The notes under the pieces: model-generated
Database searches by the model: none
Told to the model about the DNA's origin: nothing
Seen by the model: the letters and a program-made list of their open reading frames with translations, nothing else
Shown here: piece after piece, positions 6,707 through 18,656 of the stretch
Layout of the letters: each line of letters begins with the position of its first letter
Position numbering within the stretch: the stretch's first letter is position 1
NCBI GenBank assembly: GCA_965215195.1
Contig: CBDCDC010000001.1
Location: 832,001 to 896,000, forward strand
Reading direction: 5' to 3'
Length of the DNA stretch: 64,000 bases
Origin: Candidatus Latescibacterota bacterium
Lineage (GTDB): Bacteria > Latescibacterota > UBA2968 > UBA8231
Translations under genes and position numbers: made by a program

Positions 6707-9700
6707 TTATCGATCGCGCACTGTGCGATATACTTGCTCTAGCAAGGCGTCCACGATGACGTGGCGCATGGCTTCGTCGGCCATGAAGTCGTTGACGATC
6801 TTTTGGTTTCGGCCTTGTCGTTGAATAAAGGCTTTCACGACCTCGGGTTCAAAAACCTGCTTGAACTGCGCCATGGAGTTGGCCTGCGCCTGTTCGGCGA
6901 GCCGCGCATTTTGGGCCATATCGCCTGAGATTTGCTCAAACAGCAACTTATCCTCATCCGTCCAGTAGGTGCCAAAGCGCTCGTTGATCGCTTCGATGAT
7001 GGACGATAGCGGGGTGGTGTGATCTTCTTTGGGTTGTGCCGTGCCCACATCGCTGGCACCATAGACCGGGTTTCTTTCATACGCCTCCAAAGCCCCGCTA
7101 CCAGAAAAGGTCCGTTCATTGCGGTAGTGGGAGAGTGCAACTTCGTCGTCGAGTGCCAACATGCCATCCCCTGAGCGACGCGGCAGTTTGGCGAGTAGAT
7201 ACCGCCCATAGGCATAGAGTTTCTCCAGACCGAGGTCCTGCCAGTCGATGATCTGGCTCAAAAAGCCGTACAGCCGCACAAAGCTGTGCAGGGTGCTTTT
7301 GAACGTCTCGCCTTCTTCGGCAGAGGGGTCGCCGTATTCGCGCTTGAACCGTTCTACGGCGGGGTCGATCCATCTGTTAAGCCGGCCGTGATCGCGCTCG
7401 GTTTGCAGGGGCCGAGGCTTGAAGTAGGTCCGCACAAATTCGTCGATTTCACTGTCGCGCAGCACGGGTGCGCTTTTCAGTTTTGCGTCGAGCGTATATA
7501 GGTGATTCGGATCGGTGGGTTCGTCGATTTCCGTCTGTTCGCAATAGGGTTTGAACGCCTCTTTGATTTCGTCGATTTCATTGGCAAAATCGAGCACAAA
7601 GGTGTCCACTTTTCCCCGGGCGGTGCGGTTGAGCCGCGAGAGGGTTTGCACGGCTTTGAGGTCTGCCAGTCGCTTATCGACGAACATGGTGTGCAAAAGA
7701 GGTTGATCGAATCCCGTCTGATATTTTTCGGCGACGATCAATATCTGATATTCGGGAGTGGCAAAATAGGCGGGCAGTTCTCTTTCGCTGATGCCGTTAA
7801 TAGTCGCTTCCGTGTACTGCTTGTCCTCGACGTCTGGGTCCATAACGGTTCCCGAAAACGCCACGAGTGTTTTGACATCGGCGTATCCCTTGGCGGCGAT
7901 GTATTTGTCAAAAGCCTGTTTGTAGCGCACCGCATGTAGGCGCGAGCGCGTGACGAGCATGGCCTTGCCTGCCCCATTGATCTTCTTGCGGGTGAAGGTG
8001 CGAAAATGCTCGACCATGATTTCCGTTTTTTGCGCGATGTTGTAGGGGTGTAGGCTCATAAACCGCGCAATGGCCTTCTTGGCTTTGTGCTCATCCACCT
8101 CGGGATCGTCTTCAATGGCTTTGGACAGTTTGTAATACGTCTTGTACGTGGTGTAGTGTTCGAGCACGTCGTGGATGAAGCCTTCTTCAATGCCCTGACG
8201 CATGGCGTACAGATGGAACGGCTGCGGATTGCCCGCTGCATCGCGCACCCCAAACATTTCGAGCGTTCTGTGTTTGGGGGTTGCCGTGAAGGCATAGAAG
8301 CTGATGTTGGGCTGCGGCCCTCGGCTCTTGGCTGCTGATAGAATGAGGTCTTCCACGTCGGGTGGAGCATGGGCTTCCTCTGATTCTGCCGCGGCGAGCA
8401 GGGCTTTCTCGCTGTGCTTTCCATGGCCGAGTACGCGGCGAAGGTTGCTCGCGCTTTGGCCGCCCTGACTGCTGTGGGCTTCATCGACGATTACCGCGAA
8501 TGTTCGCTCGGACAGGTCTTTGACTTTGCCCATTAAAAAAGAGAACTTTTGCAAGGTCGTAATGATGATCTTTGTGCCCTTGTTGAGTTCGGCGGCCAGA
8601 TCACTCGAATTGCGGTCTTCGTCGATTTTGACCACTACGCCTTGCTTGTGTTCGATTTGATAGATGTTGTCCTGCAACTGCTTGTCGAGGTTACGGCGGT
8701 CGGAAACGACGACTACCGAGTTGAAAATGGGGCGGTCGGAAGCGTCGTGGACACTGGCCAATTGATGGGCAAGCCAGGCGATGGTATTGGTTTTGCCTGA
8801 GCCGGCACTGTGTTGGATCAGGTAGTTGTGCCCCACGCCTTTGGCTCGGGTGGCTGTGACCAAGCCGCGCACCGCCGTGAGTTGGTGATAGCGGGGAAAG
8901 ATGAGCGTTTCTGTGGTGGTGGTTTTGCCGGTGATAGCGGTGGCTTTTTCAACTTGCAGGTGAATAAAGCGGTGGATGGTGTCGAGCCAACGGTCGCGCT
9001 GCCAGACCTCTTCCCACAGGTAGCCGGTTTTGTATCCCGTCTGATACGTGTGGTCGTCGGGATTGCCTTTGCCGCCGTTGTCGCCCGTATTGAAGGGCAG
9101 GAAGAAGGTCTTGTTGCCAGCTAGCCGGGTGGTCATGTAGGCTTCGTCGGTATCGACGGCAAAATGCACCAAGGCGCGTTTCTTGTAGTGGATCAAGGGC
9201 GTTTTCGTTGTGGGTACGCGATCTTTGATGTACTGGCGAATGGCGTGGCTGGTGCGCTGGCTGGTGAAGGCGTTTTTGAGTTCGACCGTGGCTATGGGCA
9301 GGCCGTTGAGGGACAGGAGCAGGTCGATGGAATGGTTGCTGTCCAAGTCATAACGCACTTGTCGCATCACGGTGAGGCGATTCTGCTGGTAGCGTTTTTC
9401 CGTTTCTGGGTTCAGGCGGGTCGGCGGGCGAAAATAGGCCAAGCAAAGATATTGCCCCCGGTCGCGCACCCCGTTGCGGACCACATCGAGCAAGCCGCGC
9501 TTGTCGCACTCAGCGGCGATGCGCTTGACGACTGCATCCTCCACATGGCTGCCGTAGCTGATTTTGAGGGCGTCGAGCGCGTTGGGTTGGGTTTCTCTGA
9601 GAAACGCCAGTAGGGTGTGTTTGTCGAGAGCGAGTTCGGGATCGAACTGGCGGTTGTCGGCGCGGGTATATCCGGCGTGCTCTACCAGCCATGCTTCGAT

Positions 9701-9742
9701 GGCGTCTTCAAAGGCTTTTTCGGATGTGGGGTTGCCAATCAT
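6707..9742 (-). CDS. hsdR: Type I restriction endonuclease subunit R
   Basis: IDLLLSLNGLPIATVELKN nuclease motif, HSAGSGKT Walker A, VIVDEAHSSQ, TATP, TGFDQP, QTLSRLNR. Confidence 0.96.
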   Translation of the reverse strand: MIGNPTSEKAFEDAIEAWLVEHAGYTRADNRQFDPELALDKHTLLAFLRETQPNALDALKISYGSHVEDAVVKRIAAECDKRGLLDVVRNGVRDRGQYLCLAYFRPPTRLNPETEKRYQQNRLTVMRQVRYDLDSNHSIDLLLSLNGLPIATVELKNAFTSQRTSHAIRQYIKDRVPTTKTPLIHYKKRALVHFAVDTDEAYMTTRLAGNKTFFLPFNTGDNGGKGNPDDHTYQTGYKTGYLWEEVWQRDRWLDTIHRFIHLQVEKATAITGKTTTTETLIFPRYHQLTAVRGLVTATRAKGVGHNYLIQHSAGSGKTNTIAWLAHQLASVHDASDRPIFNSVVVVSDRRNLDKQLQDNIYQIEHKQGVVVKIDEDRNSSDLAAELNKGTKIIITTLQKFSFLMGKVKDLSERTFAVIVDEAHSSQGGQSASNLRRVLGHGKHSEKALLAAAESEEAHAPPDVEDLILSAAKSRGPQPNISFYAFTATPKHRTLEMFGVRDAAGNPQPFHLYAMRQGIEEGFIHDVLEHYTTYKTYYKLSKAIEDDPEVDEHKAKKAIARFMSLHPYNIAQKTEIMVEHFRTFTRKKINGAGKAMLVTRSRLHAVRYKQAFDKYIAAKGYADVKTLVAFSGTVMDPDVEDKQYTEATINGISERELPAYFATPEYQILIVAEKYQTGFDQPLLHTMFVDKRLADLKAVQTLSRLNRTARGKVDTFVLDFANEIDEIKEAFKPYCEQTEIDEPTDPNHLYTLDAKLKSAPVLRDSEIDEFVRTYFKPRPLQTERDHGRLNRWIDPAVERFKREYGDPSAEEGETFKSTLHSFVRLYGFLSQIIDWQDLGLEKLYAYGRYLLAKLPRRSGDGMLALDDEVALSHYRNERTFSGSGALEAYERNPVYGASDVGTAQPKEDHTTPLSSIIEAINERFGTYWTDEDKLLFEQISGDMAQNARLAEQAQANSMAQFKQVFEPEVVKAFIQRQGRNQKIVNDFMADEAMRHVIVDALLEQVYRTVRDR

Positions 9743-9818: not shown

Positions 9819-10244
9819 TCAAACCTTTCCCACCATTTCCGTGAAATCCATAGTCGGTAATTTTCTGATCGCCGCCTCAGTGCGTTTTAAGAGCCTTTCG
9901 GCATTCTTGGGACTTTCAAAGTATCCTGCCCAACGACCAATCGGTTCAAGTACGTAATCTGCTTGGCGACGTGCTTCATAAAGCTGGCTGAGAAGTTGTC
10001 CTAAATTGTGCAAGTCGGAATTGTTTGATGAATCCAAAAGATTCTTTAGGTTTCCATGATCGATTCGGTCATTGCGCCCATGGGTCGCCTTGCCTTCCCG
10101 CGTACGTATTTCAGTTCTTATAGCAAGAAAAAGCGCGTAATACCCACGCCCAATGGCAGTTCTCGTTCGGGCTTCTTTGTCAATACCACCTTGTCGCGTT
10201 ATTGATCGCCCAACTTTGGCGAATAATGCTGGATCGAAACTCAT
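9819..10244 (-). CDS. HEPN-domain protein (putative RNase toxin), 141 aa from MSFDP
   Basis: RTAIGRGYYALF helix and RRQADY (RxxxxY/H) motif typical of stand-alone HEPN proteins. Confidence 0.75.
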   Translation of the reverse strand: MSFDPALFAKVGRSITRQGGIDKEARTRTAIGRGYYALFLAIRTEIRTREGKATHGRNDRIDHGNLKNLLDSSNNSDLHNLGQLLSQLYEARRQADYVLEPIGRWAGYFESPKNAERLLKRTEAAIRKLPTMDFTEMVGKV

Positions 10245-10260
10245 CTTATCTAAATTTCGG

Positions 10261-10659
10261 TCAGTCAGAATCTGAAACAAAAAAGAAATTGATCGCCTTG
10301 AAGACCTTTCTACCCAACTGCTTGGCAATCAATGAGTAGAAATCAAACTCCGTCTCCGCTATCAGGTCGTCCTGGTCGTCTTGGTCTTCTGGAACGGCCA
10401 CTATAATGAGGTTTTCGGTGGTATCAACTGAGACATCAACGTTCCACTTAAACTCGGAGGCGGCTGTCTCAACAATGGAGCGCACATGACCCCAGTCAAT
10501 GTTTAAGTCAACGACCTCTTCTTTAGATTTCTCCGGTTTAAGTTCCCGAATAATGTCCCACAATTCTCGACGTTCCTGCGTCAACGCCTCCACTTGATCT
10601 TGCAGTGCGTTTACCTTGCTCCAGAGAAGACTTATTTCTTTGTGTTCAGCTTGTAACAT
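10261..10659 (-). CDS. Hypothetical protein: N-terminal coiled coil plus acidic alpha/beta C-terminal domain
   Basis: 132-aa ORF overlapping the upstream gene by 14 bp and ending 16 bp before the HEPN start. Heptad pattern VNALQDQVEALTQERREL. Confidence 0.7.
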   Translation of the reverse strand: MLQAEHKEISLLWSKVNALQDQVEALTQERRELWDIIRELKPEKSKEEVVDLNIDWGHVRSIVETAASEFKWNVDVSVDTTENLIIVAVPEDQDDQDDLIAETEFDFYSLIAKQLGRKVFKAINFFFVSDSD

Positions 10660-11146
10660 CTGCTTGCTCCTTTTTTTGTGGGCCTTTATCCAATATGTTG
10701 CTCAGTTTGCTCCCGCATTTCGCCCGAATGACTGAATATCGCGTACCTTTGAACGACACCTTCTTTTGCCTTAACGTCTTCAGGTCCGACGCATGGCGGA
10801 CGCGACCGTGCAACAGAATTGGGCAGAATCCTTCCACTTTGGATTTGCAATGCTTGGACAATTCGTTGATCTGTTGCGCTCCAGCTTGTAGTTGATTGAG
10901 CACTTGGCTGCTCTTAAAGGAACCACTTTTCAACTCCACTGCGGCTGCAATCATCTTATTGATCGTCAGGAATATCAGAAAGTCACATCTACTGCCTGTA
11001 TGGCTGATGAGATCGCTGTACTCATCTACATCAAGGATTGTTAAAGTCTTGCCATTTCTGCCCAAATCAACATGCAGCCGACAGCCTGGAGATTCACACG
11101 TCGTCTTGACTGCCGATGGCCACGTCAATTTGATCTTTGAGTGCAT
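10646..11146 (-). CDS. Small basic protein with PD-(D/E)xK nuclease-like motif
   Basis: RCDFLIF...AAAVELKSG...QL. Starts 15 bp after the ATPase stop. Confidence 0.65.
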   Translation of the reverse strand: MHSKIKLTWPSAVKTTCESPGCRLHVDLGRNGKTLTILDVDEYSDLISHTGSRCDFLIFLTINKMIAAAVELKSGSFKSSQVLNQLQAGAQQINELSKHCKSKVEGFCPILLHGRVRHASDLKTLRQKKVSFKGTRYSVIRAKCGSKLSNILDKGPQKKEQADVTS

Positions 11147-11161
11147 GATGGACGACGCCTC

Positions 11162-12538
11162 TCAGTCGAGTTGAACGGTCTCGTCATAGATGGCTTCCGC
11201 AATTCGCACAAAGTCATCTTCCGGTATGCCTTCACTTTTAGATACGGATAGTTTTATCGCTTGGGTTCCAGGACGACCCTTCCTAGAAGAAAAAAGATAG
11301 GCCCCAACCGACTCCGAGGGCAGTTGGTCCTTTTTGGTATAGCCGAGACTTTTGACCACGCTGGCCTTGGAAGACATGCGAATACAATTGCTGAGTTGCT
11401 GCAGAAAGTAGTCGCTGTGCGTCGTGACCAATACATGCAGTCCTACATTCACCATTTGGCTGACGGCGCGGGCAAGTATTCTCTGGTTTTCTGGATGGAG
11501 ATGGGCTTCCGGTTCTTCGATAATGAGCATGTCATTGGGGCCGATTACGTACTTGAGAAAGAGCACGATAGGGGCAATTTCGGAAACCATGGAGGAAGTG
11601 CGATGAATTGGAATGCGGTTTCTGTTTATCTCATATACAAACTCAGGGTAGTCGGCACCGGAGACAGGTTGATCAACGTCGATCGTCCCGCGACTTATTT
11701 CTTGTTCGAGGAATGCTGCTATTTCACTAAGCGCGGTCGATTTACGAGGTCCCTTTTCAAGATTGAGCAGATCGCTTATGAAGTCTGTCACGACCCCAGT
11801 TAGTCGAGGTATCTCAATGGGTTCAATGCCTATTAGTGGCAGGCGGGACATCATGATCCCTGCGAGTGCTTTATGACTCTGTAGGATTCCTGACCGTGCC
11901 GCCGGAAAGTAGTAGGGTGTTTCCAAGAGGTCTCGCAAACAATGTTGGACGAGATCATTGACCAGAAAGATGTATAGATGATCTTCCGGTATGTGCCGAG
12001 AGTCCAAAGGAAATTTGATTCCCGTCAAGGAATAAGTGGCCTTCCACAGCGCGAGACGTCCACCTTGGAATCTGAATTCGAGTCGTAGATCCGGTTGGCT
12101 ACTTTCTATGATGAGTTCAAACCGCTTGTGGCATCTTGGCCGAATCAGGTCGGCAAGTTTGCTTCCGAAGCAACGCTGGATTTCGCTACTTAGTTGTTCT
12201 GGTAATTGTTCACAAAGCTGTTTGAAGACCGTATCAACCGCTTGCTGGATGCCTTTAGGAAGCTCCTCAAAGTGCGCTTCTTTTTGTTTCGCCAACAGCG
12301 CGTTTAATTCCTTTTGTTCCTGCTCATCAAGTTCAGAAGGACTTGGGCGGTACATCCGCCTAGAAGGGCCAAAGCGGTGGAACCCACGAGAACGAGTGAA
12401 TGAGGCAAAAATGGCGTAGTGCAACAGAGCCGTATAGGACTTACCGGCATTGTTCTCTCCGATAAAGACCGTCAATGGCCGCAAGGATATATCCGCTTCT
12501 ATGAGCGGGCCGAAGTATTTGACCTTGACGTTTAGCAT
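11162..12538 (-). CDS. ABC-type/AAA_15-AAA_21 family ATPase (defence-associated type)
   Basis: Walker A GENNAGKS, PAARSG, degenerate signature SSMVSE, Walker B/D-loop IIEEPEAHLHP, H-loop TTHS. Confidence 0.9.
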   Translation of the reverse strand: MLNVKVKYFGPLIEADISLRPLTVFIGENNAGKSYTALLHYAIFASFTRSRGFHRFGPSRRMYRPSPSELDEQEQKELNALLAKQKEAHFEELPKGIQQAVDTVFKQLCEQLPEQLSSEIQRCFGSKLADLIRPRCHKRFELIIESSQPDLRLEFRFQGGRLALWKATYSLTGIKFPLDSRHIPEDHLYIFLVNDLVQHCLRDLLETPYYFPAARSGILQSHKALAGIMMSRLPLIGIEPIEIPRLTGVVTDFISDLLNLEKGPRKSTALSEIAAFLEQEISRGTIDVDQPVSGADYPEFVYEINRNRIPIHRTSSMVSEIAPIVLFLKYVIGPNDMLIIEEPEAHLHPENQRILARAVSQMVNVGLHVLVTTHSDYFLQQLSNCIRMSSKASVVKSLGYTKKDQLPSESVGAYLFSSRKGRPGTQAIKLSVSKSEGIPEDDFVRIAEAIYDETVQLD

Positions 12539-12581
12539 AAGTGTTTTTCCTTTGTAATTTCAAGCAGCATTCGCCGATAAC

Positions 12582-12610
12582 ATGATAGGCCAATGGTCGT
12601 AAAATAGCAA
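12582..12610 (-). promoter_or_regulatory. Putative sigma70 promoter for the ATPase-led four-gene unit
   Basis: TTGCTA-N17-TATCAT on the minus strand, followed by an AAAGGA RBS before the ATG at 12538. Confidence 0.5.
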
Positions 12611-12694: not shown

Positions 12695-15600
12695 TTATCT
12701 TTCGTATTTATCCAGATCGGTGCTAATGCTGTAAGTTTTTTCAAGGCACATCCGGTCTATCAGATCGAGACATTTAGATGCCCATTTATTGCGTTGGTGT
12801 TGATGGTATGTTCTGAACACTAGTTCTGTCGCGATGGTGCCATCTGCGGCTCGGCTCGTGCGAATATCCCGTGCCTCGTCGCTAAATCGTTCGAGAAACT
12901 TCTCACATACAACATACGTGATACCGGGCAGGCGATGCGAGGACTCTTTAAGGGCGTAAAGTATGGAATACGAGTTTTTTTTATAAGCCTCACTATCGCA
13001 AAATTTTTCTATCAGGTTTTCGTAAGACTCCAGAGATTGTCCTTCCATGTTACGGAAACAAGTCGCAACTTTTTGACAAACCTCGCTATCACTATCATTG
13101 AAAAGTCGCAGAAGTTGATGCTCCGACCATTGTCGATGAGCTGGTTGGCCGATGTTTGCAGATGCTACTCGAGCCACTCCGAGTCTCTGTGCCGAATTGC
13201 CATGGAGTGCTTCTTCCACAAGATTTCTAGCTCCGTCGTGATGAAGTAGTACCGCAATGCTTGCCAGCCGAGCACCAGTCTCATTTACCTTAGGAAGCTC
13301 TGATCGCAACATTCTTTCTACAATGCCTTGGATGCGCTCGAAGTGCTCGTATAGCCCATAATAAATAAAACGATCTAAGTATGGAGTCGCGAGTAAGTGA
13401 TCGTAGTCACCTTGGTTGCTCCAAGGTTCGGTGAGTTTGGTAAATTGCTCTAAAGCAAATTCCCAATCGTGATTTGTTATGGCTAAAAGCACTGAGGCTG
13501 CACAAGCTCGAACGGCAATACTCTTGTCGCCGCTCAATTTTTCGACTGTGGTACGAAATCGCTCAATGTAGGAAGCATCTCTTTGAATAAGAGCACCAAT
13601 GGCTTCGGCAGCACGTCCGCGTGTCGTGTTGATGCCATGTGTAAGTACATCTCCTCCATAGTAGAGTGTGCCGCCTATGGCTCTTTCATTCCATAACTCC
13701 TTCTCTGGATCAGGATGTTCTGTTGCCAACCAGTCAAGCATCTGTACGGCGTCATCAGGAATCGATTCTTCGATAGAACCTAACAAGTCAGCGATTTCGC
13801 TTCCACACTCATCGCGGAATTCGGCGTATGCTTTGCGACACACTTCAAGTTTAAGTTCGGTAAAGTTGCTCGTCTCTTTCAGGCCGGATAGTGTGTGTTC
13901 TATATAGACTGGATTTGTGCCCGATGGAAACTTGAGACTCAAGCAAGCAAATCGCTCCGGTTCTTTCTTTACAAACTCTTGCAACATCCCTGCAAGTTGC
14001 GAAGCACCACCCTTTTCAGGATTCTCCCAGAAGTATTTGCTCTCCTCAGAATCATACTTTTTAATCGCTTTGAGCCATTGTTCATCTGTCATTTTCTCTG
14101 CTGCCGTCTTTTCAATTGGAGAGCCTACTGTATATGATTGTATGCCTCTCGGAGGAGATTCCACCAGTGTTCCAAATTTCCGTTCAAGCTCTGCATAACG
14201 AGCCTGAGCAGTGTTGCTACGCAATTCAACCGGTATGCCCGATAGCAGTTCAAAACAAGCCCTCCCTCTCTTTTTATACCCGTTATGGGTCCGCTCGTAA
14301 TCCGAAACGTAATCCAGAATAGCCTCTTCAAGCCTTGCACGGTTTTCGTCGGAACAAAGCGGGGTAACTGCTTTAATCAATTGAATCGCTATCCAGTAAG
14401 GACTATTGGAATATCCGCATTGAAAACGCCAAGTCTTGTCGCAGAGCTCGGAAACAGCGTCGTCGGCAAAATGTTCCGCACCAGCTTTATAGGCCCGAAG
14501 TAGAAGAAAATTCGCCATATAGGTATCACGGCTCCGAAGAGCTGCCAAGATCGCACCAATACTGTTAGACTTCTTCTCAGCAAGTTTCTCTACCGCGACA
14601 GCAAGCCCATCCCTGCATGCCTTGTCAATTGAGACATGTTCACTGTCAAACAGACATGGCCATGGCCATACGGCATCGCGTCTTGGTGGAGTACTTTCTT
14701 CTCCATAGACGGCCTCATCGGCGATTTGCAGGACCACTGGCAGAACATGCTGCACAAATTCTTCAGGAGCTTTGGTTGCAGAGTCATAGATACCAGCACC
14801 ATCGTGGTTGAACAGGTCATGCCAGTTAGGTTTTCCTGTGCCACTGCTAGTATTTTGGACAATAGAAATGCGCCTCGTCAACCAATGCGAAACTACTTCT
14901 GGAATCCAAGCGGGTTGTGCTTCGGCGACCCCGTGCATCATGCTCCAGAATGTACTGTCGACAGCAATTGGTCCGCGTGTGTCATCCAAAGTCCCATCAT
15001 CTATTAACTTTAGGAACAAATCAAAAAACCTCCGGCTTTTCTCAAGCGCGGGCCACTGGACAATGAGCGCAAGCCGTTGAGTCCAATCTCCATCCACTCC
15101 TACAAATGGCTCTAAGATTTCAGCCACTCTGTCGCCTGAGCATCTCTGATGAATCCGAACATATTTCACACCCATATCGACAATACGATCATTCTCGGAT
15201 GCGAGCCAACCTGCGATGAGGTCCTTTTTGTCTGTAATATGAAACCAAGACTGCGAAGAGAAAAATCGGTCCCAAACTAAGGACGCGAACTTGTCTATAT
15301 TCGGTTTTCCGCTCTTGATTGCTTCAAGCTCGGATTCGATCCACGGTGCAAGCACGTTCCATTCATTTTCTTTGGGACTTGGCATCGCAATAGCTTGGGC
15401 AATAGCAAGGTCCTTTAAGTGCGAACGGATTCTCTCATCCGTCAGTAGTTCTTTGAGTTCTCTACAATACCGTTCCGGGTCAGCATCGCGAAGATAAACG
15501 AGAACTTGCCTAACCTGTGCTCTTCGAAATAGATGTTGCTCCGACTTTGTGAGGAATTCTGTCAAAGATGCATCTTGTGCCATGAAAATACGGGCAAAGC

Positions 15601-17257
15601 AATAATCAAAAAATGCCTCATGTCCGAAAGCATAACGTTTTTCATCAAACGAAAGCACACCCTCCGACGCCATCGCGTTAAGGTAATAGGACGGGAATTG
15701 ATCTAGCGTCTCCTTCGACACTGAAAGTTGCTGTGATGTAGTCATTTTATCACACAACATCTGAATTATGTTCATCCAACAGTCTGATGAGGAAGTGGCA
15801 CGATCCTTAACTGTCCGGCGTTTTTCGTCCCAGTAGTGATCAAATAAATCTTTTGTTGAGAAGAACGGCGGTTGTGAGTCGGGATTGTAATTCGTATCAA
15901 GGAACAAGGAGAGATTCTGCGGAAGGCAGAGCAACTCCAGTTGCTTTGCATCAAATAGCTCAGATTTGAAACGGCTATTCCTGAGCACTGGTTTTACTTC
16001 ATCCAGAGAAAAATCTGTGACGGTGACTTTGGCAGAGTCTTTTGCAAAAGGGCGGCGCAAACGATGATCGTTTTCCCAATCAAACTCTCGGCAGACAACC
16101 ACGACGTGAAATTTCACTCTATTGCGTAACCCCTTTGCCTCGTCTAAAAGGTCTTCCACAACATCAAAGAAATCCGAACTGCGGCCAGAAGTTGTGCTGA
16201 CGGCGTCGAGTTGATCGATAACGAGAACCGCCTCACTTGACCTGGCCTCAGCCGCTGTCGCCAACACGAGTACTGGCGATTCTTCGAGGTTAAGCTGTTC
16301 GCCCAATTTTTTGGTTGATGATACCGGCTTTATGCGGTCCAGCCGAAAGGCAAGTACAGCAGTATCACTGCTTTGACGGAGGGTTTCTACAAATTCGATT
16401 ACGCATCCCGTCTTTCCGCCCCCGGCCTTGCCGGTGAGAACGCAGTTGCAACCCCTCTTATTTTCTTTGAGCTTGGCAATGAGTTCCTGAGTCGAGGAGC
16501 GAGGAATAAGAGAGTCTTGAATCAGATTTCGTCGTGTGACTTCGAGATAACGATCAGTTGCTTCGTCAATGAGCGAAGGGGCGTCATTTGGTTTGGTAAG
16601 TTGCCTCAGTGTGAACCCCTTGCTTTGAAGGTGCGAAATCAGATCCTTGCGGCTGATGTCCTTATGGATTGAATCTTCAGCAAAGCTGCGGAGTGCATCA
16701 CAAACGTTATTTGGTTTAGCGAGGAACCGTACCGACAAAGATGGCCGAACCTGTTCTTCAATGCCTCTCTCATCAATTGTACGGACTTCGATTCGTTGGA
16801 GTATCGAGTATGTCTTGGCTGTATCTGTGTTGTGCCAGATATTTTTGAGTGTTTGGAGAGCTTTCTTTTGGATATCAGAGTTCACAAACTTGGATTCAAA
16901 CTCCTCTAGATTATTTGCTTTCACAGCCCCCTCTGTTAGCTTTCTTAACTCCGGTGCATCGCTCCCCGAAACAAAAACAAACTGTGTGCTATCTTTTGCA
17001 GAAAGTTGATCGAACATCGTCCGTAGCAGGTCGCTAAAGGCAGACAGATTCCACTTGCCACTTGGATGACTGATCTTTACTTGGTGAAGCTCTTGATAGC
17101 CTCCAACAGTGATTACAAACTCGGCTTTATCGACCGTCGGGTCCTCAATTCGGATATTATCGGCTTCTTCATTAATGATACGTACAAGCTGAGAGACCGT
17201 CCACCATTGTTCGTAGCGATTTCCAAACTTGTTAGCGGGTCCGCCAGGCAATGGCAT
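12695..17257 (-). CDS. Avs (AVAST)-like STAND NTPase with N-terminal nuclease-like domain and long helical-repeat C-terminus
   Basis: N-terminal GNRYE...EF...HQVK (restriction-endonuclease-like), Walker A GKAGGGKT, Walker B LVIDQLD, VVVCR sensor, FGHEAFFDY, then about 900 aa of helical HEAT/TPR-like sequence. Confidence 0.75.
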   Translation of the reverse strand: MPLPGGPANKFGNRYEQWWTVSQLVRIINEEADNIRIEDPTVDKAEFVITVGGYQELHQVKISHPSGKWNLSAFSDLLRTMFDQLSAKDSTQFVFVSGSDAPELRKLTEGAVKANNLEEFESKFVNSDIQKKALQTLKNIWHNTDTAKTYSILQRIEVRTIDERGIEEQVRPSLSVRFLAKPNNVCDALRSFAEDSIHKDISRKDLISHLQSKGFTLRQLTKPNDAPSLIDEATDRYLEVTRRNLIQDSLIPRSSTQELIAKLKENKRGCNCVLTGKAGGGKTGCVIEFVETLRQSSDTAVLAFRLDRIKPVSSTKKLGEQLNLEESPVLVLATAAEARSSEAVLVIDQLDAVSTTSGRSSDFFDVVEDLLDEAKGLRNRVKFHVVVVCREFDWENDHRLRRPFAKDSAKVTVTDFSLDEVKPVLRNSRFKSELFDAKQLELLCLPQNLSLFLDTNYNPDSQPPFFSTKDLFDHYWDEKRRTVKDRATSSSDCWMNIIQMLCDKMTTSQQLSVSKETLDQFPSYYLNAMASEGVLSFDEKRYAFGHEAFFDYCFARIFMAQDASLTEFLTKSEQHLFRRAQVRQVLVYLRDADPERYCRELKELLTDERIRSHLKDLAIAQAIAMPSPKENEWNVLAPWIESELEAIKSGKPNIDKFASLVWDRFFSSQSWFHITDKKDLIAGWLASENDRIVDMGVKYVRIHQRCSGDRVAEILEPFVGVDGDWTQRLALIVQWPALEKSRRFFDLFLKLIDDGTLDDTRGPIAVDSTFWSMMHGVAEAQPAWIPEVVSHWLTRRISIVQNTSSGTGKPNWHDLFNHDGAGIYDSATKAPEEFVQHVLPVVLQIADEAVYGEESTPPRRDAVWPWPCLFDSEHVSIDKACRDGLAVAVEKLAEKKSNSIGAILAALRSRDTYMANFLLLRAYKAGAEHFADDAVSELCDKTWRFQCGYSNSPYWIAIQLIKAVTPLCSDENRARLEEAILDYVSDYERTHNGYKKRGRACFELLSGIPVELRSNTAQARYAELERKFGTLVESPPRGIQSYTVGSPIEKTAAEKMTDEQWLKAIKKYDSEESKYFWENPEKGGASQLAGMLQEFVKKEPERFACLSLKFPSGTNPVYIEHTLSGLKETSNFTELKLEVCRKAYAEFRDECGSEIADLLGSIEESIPDDAVQMLDWLATEHPDPEKELWNERAIGGTLYYGGDVLTHGINTTRGRAAEAIGALIQRDASYIERFRTTVEKLSGDKSIAVRACAASVLLAITNHDWEFALEQFTKLTEPWSNQGDYDHLLATPYLDRFIYYGLYEHFERIQGIVERMLRSELPKVNETGARLASIAVLLHHDGARNLVEEALHGNSAQRLGVARVASANIGQPAHRQWSEHQLLRLFNDSDSEVCQKVATCFRNMEGQSLESYENLIEKFCDSEAYKKNSYSILYALKESSHRLPGITYVVCEKFLERFSDEARDIRTSRAADGTIATELVFRTYHQHQRNKWASKCLDLIDRMCLEKTYSISTDLDKYER

Positions 17258-17342: not shown

Positions 17343-18656
17343 CTATACTGCACGGCGCACGTCAATTTTCCCCGTCACCGCAGCGGAGATCAGAGCAGTT
17401 CGGCGTTCCTTGAGCAGCCCAATCGCCGTTTCACATTTTTCGATGAGCGCGTCGATCTTCTCGGTTTCTCGGTCGAGAAATGTGGCGATTTGCTTTTGTT
17501 CTTCAAGTGGTGGCACGGAAATACTGATATTGGCGATGTCACTAGCATTGGTCGCAGGATAGCTGACGCCAACGGATTGGGCAACCACTGTCTCCACAAA
17601 AAAGGGTGCCTGTAGCAAATAAGAGCAATATGCCGGTTTCAATTCGTCGCGGGGAGATACCACGCAGAAACCCGTTGATACAACCAGATCCTCGGCACTT
17701 CCTTTTACGGACGCAATCGCCCGAAGGTATGTTCTGACAGTTGATACGATTGCATCTCCTTTTCGTACCAAACGCCTTGCACGAGAAGGCGCACTTGAAA
17801 ATCTCATTCTCTCTGTTTTAGTAATGCCCGACCCTTCTGATACACTGCCAATGTCAACGTAATCAAATTCGTAATCTGGGTCTGTGCTTTCGGGCAACAC
17901 GCTTCTATTGATATGCGATAGATGTTTGAGGGGTTTCAAATCCCACCCCGCCGGCACCTCCCCCAACCACGTAACCCCACTCGCCTTCATCTTCGCATTC
18001 GGATTCAATCCTTTGGTGACGGCATTCGAGATGACCGCCTGCCGCTTTTCCCGAAGCAGTGCGATCAGGTGCTCTTGCTTGTCAACGAGCGCGTCGATCC
18101 TCTCGGTTTCTCGGTCGAGGAATGTGGCGATTTGTTTTTGGTCTTCGAGTGGTGGAACGGAAATACTGATCTTGGCAATGTCACTGGCATTGGTCGCAGG
18201 ATAGCTGACGCCAACGGATTGGGCAACCACTGTCTCCACAAAAAAGGATGCCTGTAGCAAATAAGAGCAATATGCCGGTTTCAATTCGTCGCGGGGAGAT
18301 ACCACGCAGAAACCCGTTGATACAACCAGATCCTCGGCACTTCCTTTTACGGACGCAATCGCCCGAAGGTATGTTCTGACAGTTGATACGATTGCATCGC
18401 CTTTTCGTACTAGACGTCTTGCACGAGAAGGCGCACTTGAAAATCTCATTCTCTCTGTTTTAGTAATGCCCAACCCTTCTGATACACTGCCAATGTCAAT
18501 ATAATCAAATTCGTAATCTGGGTCTGTGCTTTCGGACAACACATTTCTATTGATATGCGCCAGATGTTTGAGAGGTTTCAAATCCCATCCCGCCGGCACC
18601 TCCCCCAACCACTCAACCCCACTCTCCTTGTACTCCGCATACTTCCGAAAATTCAT
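17343..18656 (-). CDS. hsdS: Type I R-M specificity subunit with two near-identical TRDs (437 aa from MNFRKY)
   Basis: YKESGVEWLGEVP, PPLE(D/E)QKQIA.FLD conserved helices, AVTKG and AVTGKIDV. ATGA overlap with the yhcG stop. Confidence 0.95.
   Translation of the reverse strand: MNFRKYAEYKESGVEWLGEVPAGWDLKPLKHLAHINRNVLSESTDPDYEFDYIDIGSVSEGLGITKTERMRFSSAPSRARRLVRKGDAIVSTVRTYLRAIASVKGSAEDLVVSTGFCVVSPRDELKPAYCSYLLQASFFVETVVAQSVGVSYPATNASDIAKISISVPPLEDQKQIATFLDRETERIDALVDKQEHLIALLREKRQAVISNAVTKGLNPNAKMKASGVTWLGEVPAGWDLKPLKHLSHINRSVLPESTDPDYEFDYVDIGSVSEGSGITKTERMRFSSAPSRARRLVRKGDAIVSTVRTYLRAIASVKGSAEDLVVSTGFCVVSPRDELKPAYCSYLLQAPFFVETVVAQSVGVSYPATNASDIANISISVPPLEEQKQIATFLDRETEKIDALIEKCETAIGLLKERRTALISAAVTGKIDVRRAV
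17445..18624. repeat. About 540-bp direct repeat inside hsdS (17445-17982 vs 18087-18624, offset 642 bp)
   Basis: Long identical DNA stretches in both halves with scattered substitutions. Confidence 0.95.

Follow-up and report, generated by a model that had tools for sequence, protein, structure and literature searches.

The DNA analysed here, termed the window, is a 64,000-nucleotide stretch of the genome of a Candidatus Latescibacterota bacterium, and the subject is a group of four co-oriented minus-strand genes (ATPase, ORF2, ORF3 and ORF4) placed within a type I restriction-modification (R-M) locus, with hsdS on one side and hsdR on the other. From Pfam matches, the gene order on the minus strand is hsdM-yhcG-hsdS-[1520-aa STAND gene]-ATPase-ORF2-ORF3-ORF4-hsdR. 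The four genes, grouped into two modules for the reasons given below, are:

12538-11162, minus strand: ATPase, gene A of module 1, an OLD-type ABC ATPase of 458 aa
11146-10646, minus strand: ORF2, gene B of module 1, a small putative nuclease of PD-(D/E)xK fold, 166 aa
10659-10261, minus strand: ORF3, gene A of module 2, a putative antitoxin of 132 aa
10244-9819, minus strand: ORF4, gene B of module 2, a putative RNase toxin of HEPN-T type, 141 aa

The genes are tightly packed, with a gap of 15 bp between ATPase and ORF2, an overlap of 14 bp between ORF2 and ORF3 and a gap of 16 bp between ORF3 and ORF4. Purifying selection acts on each of the four (13 pairwise orthologue comparisons, dN/dS 0.14-0.34). 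A contig from another study's sequencing run covers positions 10166-10940 with 7 differences, and the join of ORF2, ORF3 and ORF4 is therefore no assembly artefact. No RNA dataset was found among the sequencing runs listed for the locus. An earlier reading made from the letters alone (the sequence-only reading) had proposed an undescribed four-gene defence unit at this site. Its account of the packing, of the position inside the R-M locus, of the protein motifs and of the four domain types (ABC ATPase, PD-(D/E)xK fold, coiled coil plus acidic domain, HEPN) was borne out.

The unit itself was examined through relatives of ORF2 and ORF4. The ORF2 search found matches in 38 of 101 related genomes (51 rows), and with an ORF4-family profile, matches came from 35 of the 168 genomes of the phylum (46 rows). 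We examined 34 ORF2-centred loci (30 from the search, three paralogues from the same genome and one alphaproteobacterial locus) and 33 HEPN-centred loci (30 from the search plus L013, L087 and L088). An ATPase gene stands upstream of ORF2 in 33 of the 34 ORF2-centred loci (32/33 outside the window), and the single locus without it, L046, stops at a contig end. Only in the window did the flank of 1.0-1.5 kb contain a HEPN or ORF3 domain; the other 33 ORF2 loci had neither there. Equally, an ATPase or ORF2 near the HEPN gene was found in the window and in 0/32 other HEPN-centred loci. The four-gene order is thus not conserved in the other loci examined.

Individual loci show each pair standing alone. 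In genome G027 the order is hsdS-ATPase (77% identity)-ORF2 (69%)-hsdR with no gene in between. In G065, which belongs to another family, ATPase (90%) and ORF2 (93%) are intact, ORF3 is a broken remnant and ORF4 is gone; module 1 stays under selection there despite these losses. The genome of the window itself (G000) has three further pairs of this kind, none of them with ORF3 or ORF4:

C2:2217498-2219478, C2:42008-43959 and C1:712953-714889: further ATPase plus ORF2-type pairs, 28-36% identity

ORF3 (60-69%) and ORF4 (71-84%) were likewise found without module 1, in G022, G067, G078, G068 (where ORF4 is split) and L087. On a deep, diverged contig from run X5, the same run that gave the contig bridging ORF2 to ORF4, the distance from hsdR to the ATPase is shorter by ~920 nt, which fits the loss of ORF3 and ORF4. 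The overlap between the modules also has a simple origin. ORF2 stops at 156 aa in G065 and G027; the window has lost that stop, which gave ORF2 its last 10 aa, and the 14-bp overlap with ORF3 is therefore secondary.

The interval from hsdS to hsdR is a variable slot, and both modules are carried in it as cargo. We consider it very likely that the four genes form a stack of two separable modules in that slot, each of two genes: a likely pair of the WonAB/PD-T4-4 class followed by a likely HEPN toxin-antitoxin (TA) pair. The independence of the two modules within this R-M cargo slot we regard as highly probable. The sequence-only reading had kept two independent two-gene modules as a fallback, and the separability across loci supports it. 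Its preferred proposal was a single system, split PrrC-like or with two effectors (DNase plus RNase); in the latter case a single ATPase would govern the DNase as well as the HEPN RNase. The tight co-oriented packing speaks for such a system, as does the ORF2-ORF3 junction, which is common to G065 and present in the second study. Outside the window, however, the ATPase/nuclease pair never stands beside an intact HEPN pair in the loci counted above, the ORF2/ORF3 overlap is due to a lost stop codon, and G065 lost ORF4 and broke ORF3 but kept module 1 under selection. We therefore judge one four-gene system to be very improbable.

Several points weigh against the two-module interpretation. The counts leave out 17 of the 51 ORF2 rows and 15 of the 46 HEPN rows, and the genomes compared come from one phylum plus three other records, in which kin are not independent of one another. 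The end of ORF2, the ribosome-binding site (RBS) of ORF3 and the first ORF3 codons are common to the window and G065, so the adjacency of ORF2 and ORF3 is older than this genome. A near-identical strain in the second study also has ORF2, ORF3 and ORF4 side by side.

The G065 locus (L010) has further features of its own. Two 202-bp copies of the 5' region of ORF2, 98.5% alike, lie at 7408-7609 and 10522-10723; a CotH/lamin-tail gene stands between them and the ORF3 remnant follows the second. Upstream of its ATPase lies a trio of genes for a C5 methylase, a HATPase and a Methyltransf_35 protein.

The surrounding features of the window are:

6707..9742, minus strand: hsdR of the flanking type I R-M system (Pfam HSDR_N, SWI2_SNF2, ResIII)
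about 18656-17343, minus strand: hsdS of the type I R-M system (Pfam Methylase_S)
19666-18653, minus strand: yhcG/DUF1016 gene in the type I R-M locus (Pfam YhcG_C and DUF1016_N)
21653-19659, minus strand: hsdM of the type I R-M system (Pfam N6_Mtase)
17257-12695, minus strand: STAND NTPase of 1520 aa with HEAT-like repeats, a separate cargo gene
12610-12582, minus strand: promoter-like hexamers TTGCTA-N17-TATCAT, 9/12 matches, chance-level

Unrelated defence genes embedded in type I R-M loci are common, according to the accessible part of 10.1101/2024.01.29.577857. The translation of hsdS (17343-18656, minus strand) has two nearly identical target-recognition halves, which suggests a symmetric recognition site. 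The STAND NTPase (12695-17257) is a fifth embedded gene that the earlier reading had passed over. It matches PADLOC PDC-M54A at 6e-22, its Pfam nSTAND/NACHT matches are below cut-off, and of its orthologues the one in G065 (85%) occupies the same slot, another being found in G071 (65%); from its sequence it is a separate single-gene defence candidate.

Three signals had been taken to mark off the four genes. They are indeed AT-richer than the host (45-49% GC against 60% for the genome), but the low GC extends past them into the STAND gene (47%) and hsdS (50%), and we rejected it as a boundary of the unit. The TTGCTA-N17-TATCAT promoter is present as described; however, sites of this type number 5 in the region against 4.4 ± 2.2 in shuffled sequence, so the site is at chance level, and we rejected it too as evidence for a unit. 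RBS-like sequences are clear before ATPase, ORF2 and ORF3 and weak before ORF4. A plasmid search returned 37 partial matches to the ATPase, all <60%, and zero matches to ORF4.

The ATPase of module 1 carries the full set of Walker A, Q-loop Arg, signature sequence, Walker B, D-loop plus H-loop (GENNAGKS 27-34, PAARSG 212-217, SSMVSE 315-320, IIEEPEAHLHP 339-349, TTHSD 372-376), with key residues K33, R215, E342 and H374 assigned by motif position. It matches AAA_15 (4.9e-23) and AAA_21 (2e-11) in Pfam, and PD-T4-4_A (1.2e-46), PDC-M47A (3.7e-33) and AriA (5.9e-25) in PADLOC; the PD-T4-4_A and PDC-M47A matches cover mainly its C-terminal third. ORF2 has the motifs RCDF 53-56 and VELKSG 70-75 with residues D55, E71 and K73. 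Across its family E71 never varies, D55 hardly does, and 23/26 members have K73. The cysteines C22, C54 and C144 are conserved in the family as well, with C17 often present too, and may form a metal site or a disulphide.

The structure model of ORF2 (predicted local distance difference test, pLDDT, 88) gave as top fold matches Cdn1 (Z 7.4, root-mean-square deviation (rmsd) 3.1, 112 residues aligned), Can1-type proteins, Can2 (7.2), VC1899 (6.8), Upx (5.8) and several restriction endonucleases (REases), over a range of Z 7.4-5.6. All these Z values are <8, yet nearly all top rows are restriction-endonuclease folds. The ORF2 profile had no match among PDB sequences. ORF2 is thus modelled as a putative nuclease of restriction, PD-(D/E)xK, fold, tightly linked downstream of an ABC ATPase. 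Its PADLOC match to PDC-M47B is weak (9.7e-4 over 41 residues, with PADLOC's own rule thresholds not applied); the best PDC-M47B model was matched by 11/26 family members, and PD-T4-4_B by 0/26 at E<=0.01.

ORF4 matches Pfam HEPN at 0.0062, below cut-off, while 12/20 family members match at E<=0.01; its PADLOC match is HEPN_IX (9.8e-6). Against the PDB, the best match of the ORF4-family profile was the Retron-Kva2 HEPN (3.6e-6), and 9xbd, 9xbc and AF0298 (2hsb) were also matched. Residues H64, R122, Y41 and Y42 of Kva2 align to H63, R92, Y35 and Y36 of ORF4, the stretch around Kva2 R122 having a weak score by itself. ORF4 carries the motif R92..A95-D96-Y97; R92, D96 and Y97 occur in 22/22 family members and H63 in 21/22. 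Matches to a canonical Rx4-6H (R49..H55, R57..H63) were rejected, as they are not conserved in distant members. In its place ORF4 has a split His and Arg site plus a YY motif. The sequence-only reading had named the HEPN R and Y as the key residues. The Arg, R92, stands, and the pair was incomplete, since H63 and R92 are the putative catalytic pair.

A split His/Arg site belongs to the HEPN-T family, as described in the available parts of PMC3710099 and PMC7736814. In the Kva2 HEPN, H64 and R122 are catalytic and tRNA/rRNA is cleaved, in the accounts accessible from two preprints (10.64898/2026.07.14.738597; 10.64898/2026.07.11.737809). By alignment, then, ORF4 is a putative RNase of HEPN-T type with the residues reported as catalytic or substrate-positioning in Kva2. 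Another, distant HEPN of this type is encoded in the genome (G000 C2:3385974-3386381), likewise with a small partner of its own upstream, and in L128 and L129 partners related to that of the second HEPN have a YGSD..G stretch resembling a decayed MNT motif.

The model of ORF3 (pLDDT 91) has a long N-terminal helix (2-40) and an acidic alpha-beta-beta-alpha-beta domain (56-129), with no helix-turn-helix (HTH); its N-terminus is shorter than in most orthologues. The isoelectric points of ORF3 and ORF4 are 4.4 and 9.9, respectively, and ORF3 stands directly upstream of ORF4 in 5/5 close ORF4 orthologues. At the 33 HEPN loci the partner has an ORF3-type domain in 7 and is of a second type, also upstream, in 17, both counts being circular because the two profiles were built partly from these loci; at the other 9 an upstream ORF was seen by inspection. 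A small upstream partner is found at nearly all examined loci of HEPN relatives. Profile-profile comparison of the ORF3 domain with the partners of distant HEPNs gave no significant match (0.35%; 0.2-3.1%, with 0.3% for a reversed control), so homology between them is unproven.

We predicted the complex of ORF3 residues 45-132 with two copies of ORF4, which scored 0.84 against 0.01 for the best of 3 controls. In calibration, the mark was reached by 116/157 solved complexes and by 2/215 mismatched pairs. At least 90% of contacts are common to the runs, and the partner pLDDT is 86. The predicted interface joins the conserved ETxFDFY helix and last strand of ORF3 to ORF4 helices 76-87 and 104-128. 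ORF3 is thus predicted, from this model, to bind ORF4.

HEPN-MNT pairs are labelled type VII TA systems, and the MNT nucleotidyltransferase motif is GS..DxD. One alternative is that module 2 is such a pair, its antitoxin still nucleotidylating the invariant Y97. Nucleotidyltransferase folds do occur in the ORF3 fold list (Z 5.5-5.7), and one ORF4 family member matches PDC-M05B at 2.6e-7, PDC-M05 being an MNT plus HEPN pair in the accessible text of PMC12988326 and 10.1101/2024.09.26.614923. The ORF4 of the window, in contrast, had no match to the PDC-M05B models. A motif scan found no GS..DxD in ORF3, and no Pfam NTase was matched by ORF3 or by 35 ORF3 relatives and partner proteins. Common KH-II/RbfA/DciA-like folds head the ORF3 list (Z 8.0-7.5, generic matches), and these and CDF-type folds (CzrB, Z 6.4, rmsd 3.0, 74 residues aligned) score equal to or higher than the nucleotidyltransferases. 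No MNT or Kva2 WH chain is among the 50 listed fold matches, although WH may be outside the fold library. Profiles of ORF3 and of the partners matched coiled-coil or designed proteins only among PDB sequences, with no Kva2 WH or MNT chain, and the ESM Atlas returned nothing usable for ORF3 45-132. A nucleotidylating pair is thus improbable here. Since the MNT catalytic motif is missing, ORF3 would restrain ORF4 by binding, and ORF3-ORF4 is likely a retron-free, binding-type HEPN TA pair; on balance we favour a HEPN RNase toxin restrained by ORF3 binding.

Some observations count against restraint by binding. H63 and R92 fall outside the predicted ORF3 interface, so the model is no demonstration of steric blocking. 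The passing score may reflect resemblance to solved HEPN complexes, and our own alignments and the 2+1 stoichiometry fall outside the calibration of that score. The ORF3 domain occurs without an adjacent HEPN in 7 of the 11 other genomes that have it, and in a second copy in G078; these HEPN-less domains are conserved (dN/dS 0.15-0.24, 3 tested), and a strict antitoxin role leaves them unexplained. Even with separate modules, then, ORF3 may act as an activator, adaptor or regulator instead of an antitoxin, or ORF4 may bind RNA without being toxic. The orphan domains and the position of the interface away from the active-site residues both point this way. In the accessible text of 10.64898/2026.07.14.738597, Kva2 WH is required for defence besides damping toxicity, but its co-expression attenuates HEPN toxicity. 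The antitoxin-first gene order, the opposite charges and the conserved putative catalytic residues of ORF4 also speak for an antitoxin, and we regard a different role as unlikely, though a serious contender.

The HEPN-less ORF3 domains, which are possible orphan antitoxins, sit on a different N-terminus (~149 aa), lack a HEPN neighbour and lie close to hsdR. The second HEPN-partner domain, too, occurs apart from its HEPN, joined to a DUF2283 domain at its N-terminus. One and the same large gene pair follows ORF3-ORF4 in 4/5 close loci, and its G022 copies match OloA (2.8e-12) and OloB (5.8e-28) of Olokun. The positions are:

L091:2900-3349, L092:6367-6816, L093:6943-7392, L094:6213-6662, L095:6761-7315 and L030:3465-3914: HEPN-less ORF3-domain genes, under purifying selection where tested
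L091:2380-2838, L094:6724-7182, L029:5485-5943 and L096:6386-6853: second partner domain fused to DUF2283
L028:3536-7274, L029:1723-5488, L030:4225-7975 and L087:1184-2496 (first gene only, contig ends): large gene pair after ORF3-ORF4

We infer the activities of the two modules from their described relatives. In module 1, by analogy with WonAB, infection would be sensed by the ATPase, which would form a dimer and bind ORF2. Cleavage of nucleic acid by ORF2 would follow, with arrest of the infected cell. Such an ATPase-gated nuclease causing abortive infection is quite probably what module 1 encodes. In module 2, an ORF4 dimer would form an active site from H63 and R92, with Y35/Y36 positioning the RNA as in the Retron-Kva2 HEPN, and tRNA or rRNA would be cut. 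ORF3 would hold ORF4 back by binding helices 76-87 and 104-128, and ORF4 would be released on loss or displacement of ORF3.

Module 1 would add a member to a described class, and a four-gene system is unsupported. Cargo turnover in a type I R-M slot is clearly seen at this locus, a caution against taking tight packing as the mark of a single system. The ORF3 side of module 2 was missed by both Pfam and PADLOC. If module 2 is a retron-free type IX effector, as suggested below, it would represent an unmodelled family of HEPN TA pairs of binding type, with HEPN relatives in 35/168 genomes of the phylum, and would link HEPN-MNT pairs (antitoxin by AMPylation) with retron HB domains (antitoxin by binding). 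As a system of two proteins it would also lend itself to study of the split His/Arg HEPN site. If ORF3 restrains by binding alone, the pair would amount to the HEPN-partner module of the type IX retron in minimal, free-standing form. Literature searches found no description of a stand-alone pair like ORF3-ORF4, many subscription papers lying outside their coverage.

Among known systems, the closest to module 1 is WonAB. As far as the accessible text of PMC12137116 describes it, this anti-phage system combines an OLD-like ABC ATPase with a PD-(D/E)xK partner, needs both activities and shuts down translation; its wider 'OLD-ABC ATPase + novel REase' family occurs in 0.96% of genomes and includes PD-T4-4-like operons. 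As in module 1, the ABC ATPase gene is followed by a small PD-(D/E)xK gene, whose product is of 16-19 kDa. WonA K34, R182, E300 and H333 and WonB K71 sit like K33, R215, E342, H374 and K73 here, by motif position and not by alignment. The comparison was made on motifs and gene arrangement, not on the WonA and WonB sequences, PADLOC v2.0.0 having no WonAB model. A difference lies in the conserved C22, C54 and C144 of the ORF2 family. For PD-T4-4 (PMC9519451, from the part available), the ATPase matches PD-T4-4_A but no ORF2 family member matches PD-T4-4_B, which places module 1 outside strict membership. For PDC-M47, the ATPase matches M47A and the M47B matches of the ORF2 family are weak and limited to the motif region; this system is defined in the supplement of 10.1101/2024.01.29.577857, whose main text, so far as accessible, does not name it. 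By analogy, module 1 is likely an anti-phage pair of the WonAB/PD-T4-4/PDC-M47 class and a member of a described class. The claim that the partner set matches no known system was therefore wrong for module 1.

PrrC and RloC consist of an ABC ATPase domain fused to a HEPN anticodon nuclease. In the window the ATPase and ORF4 are separate ORFs that do not co-occur elsewhere, and no PrrC or RloC profile was among the listed PADLOC and Pfam matches. The likeness lies in an ABC ATPase and a HEPN within a type I R-M locus, as PrrC is placed in the accessible text of 10.1101/2024.01.29.577857.

Module 2 resembles the HEPN-MNT pairs and AF0298 (2hsb), in the available part of PMC3710099, in having a small upstream partner before a HEPN-T protein. 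HEPN-T proteins of the AF0298 type and ORF4 have in common an alternative His on the N-terminal side and a conserved Tyr on the C-terminal side. The HEPN-MNT partner has a nucleotidyltransferase motif, whereas ORF3 lacks one, and neutralisation by AMPylation is therefore unlikely.

The type IX retron HEPN (Kva2; PMC7736814, in the part available) is like ORF4 in its split His/Arg site and YY motif and in lacking Rx4-6H. In Retron-Kva2, the alpha-beta-beta-alpha-beta domains HB1 and HB2 of WH wrap the HEPN and damp its toxicity, and they are likened to a zinc-transporter cytoplasmic domain in the accessible parts of the preprints (10.64898/2026.07.14.738597; 10.64898/2026.07.11.737809). The ORF3 domain shares this topology, although sequence homology is not established. 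The retron partner has HB1, HB2 and an HTH; ORF3 has one such domain, a coiled coil and no HTH and, unlike that partner, stands before the HEPN gene. Module 2 could still be the effector of a type IX retron with its reverse transcriptase (RT) and non-coding RNA (ncRNA) elsewhere: type IX retron HEPNs head the PADLOC and PDB matches of ORF4, and the genome has two RVT_1 genes, both on another contig (C2: 200788-201516 and 298818-299441, in open frames of 605 and 569 aa). No RT, however, lies beside ORF3-ORF4 in the locus (no search was made for an ncRNA), and a scan of 67 ORFs (200-900 aa, same strand) lying up to 4 kb from 17 HEPN loci turned up no RT motif. With ORF3 a single small domain without HTH, a dispersed retron is most improbable. 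Tentatively, and with a little less than even confidence, we instead suggest that ORF3-ORF4 is a free-standing, retron-free type IX effector, an RNase of HEPN-T type held off by a single non-catalytic HEPN-binding domain.

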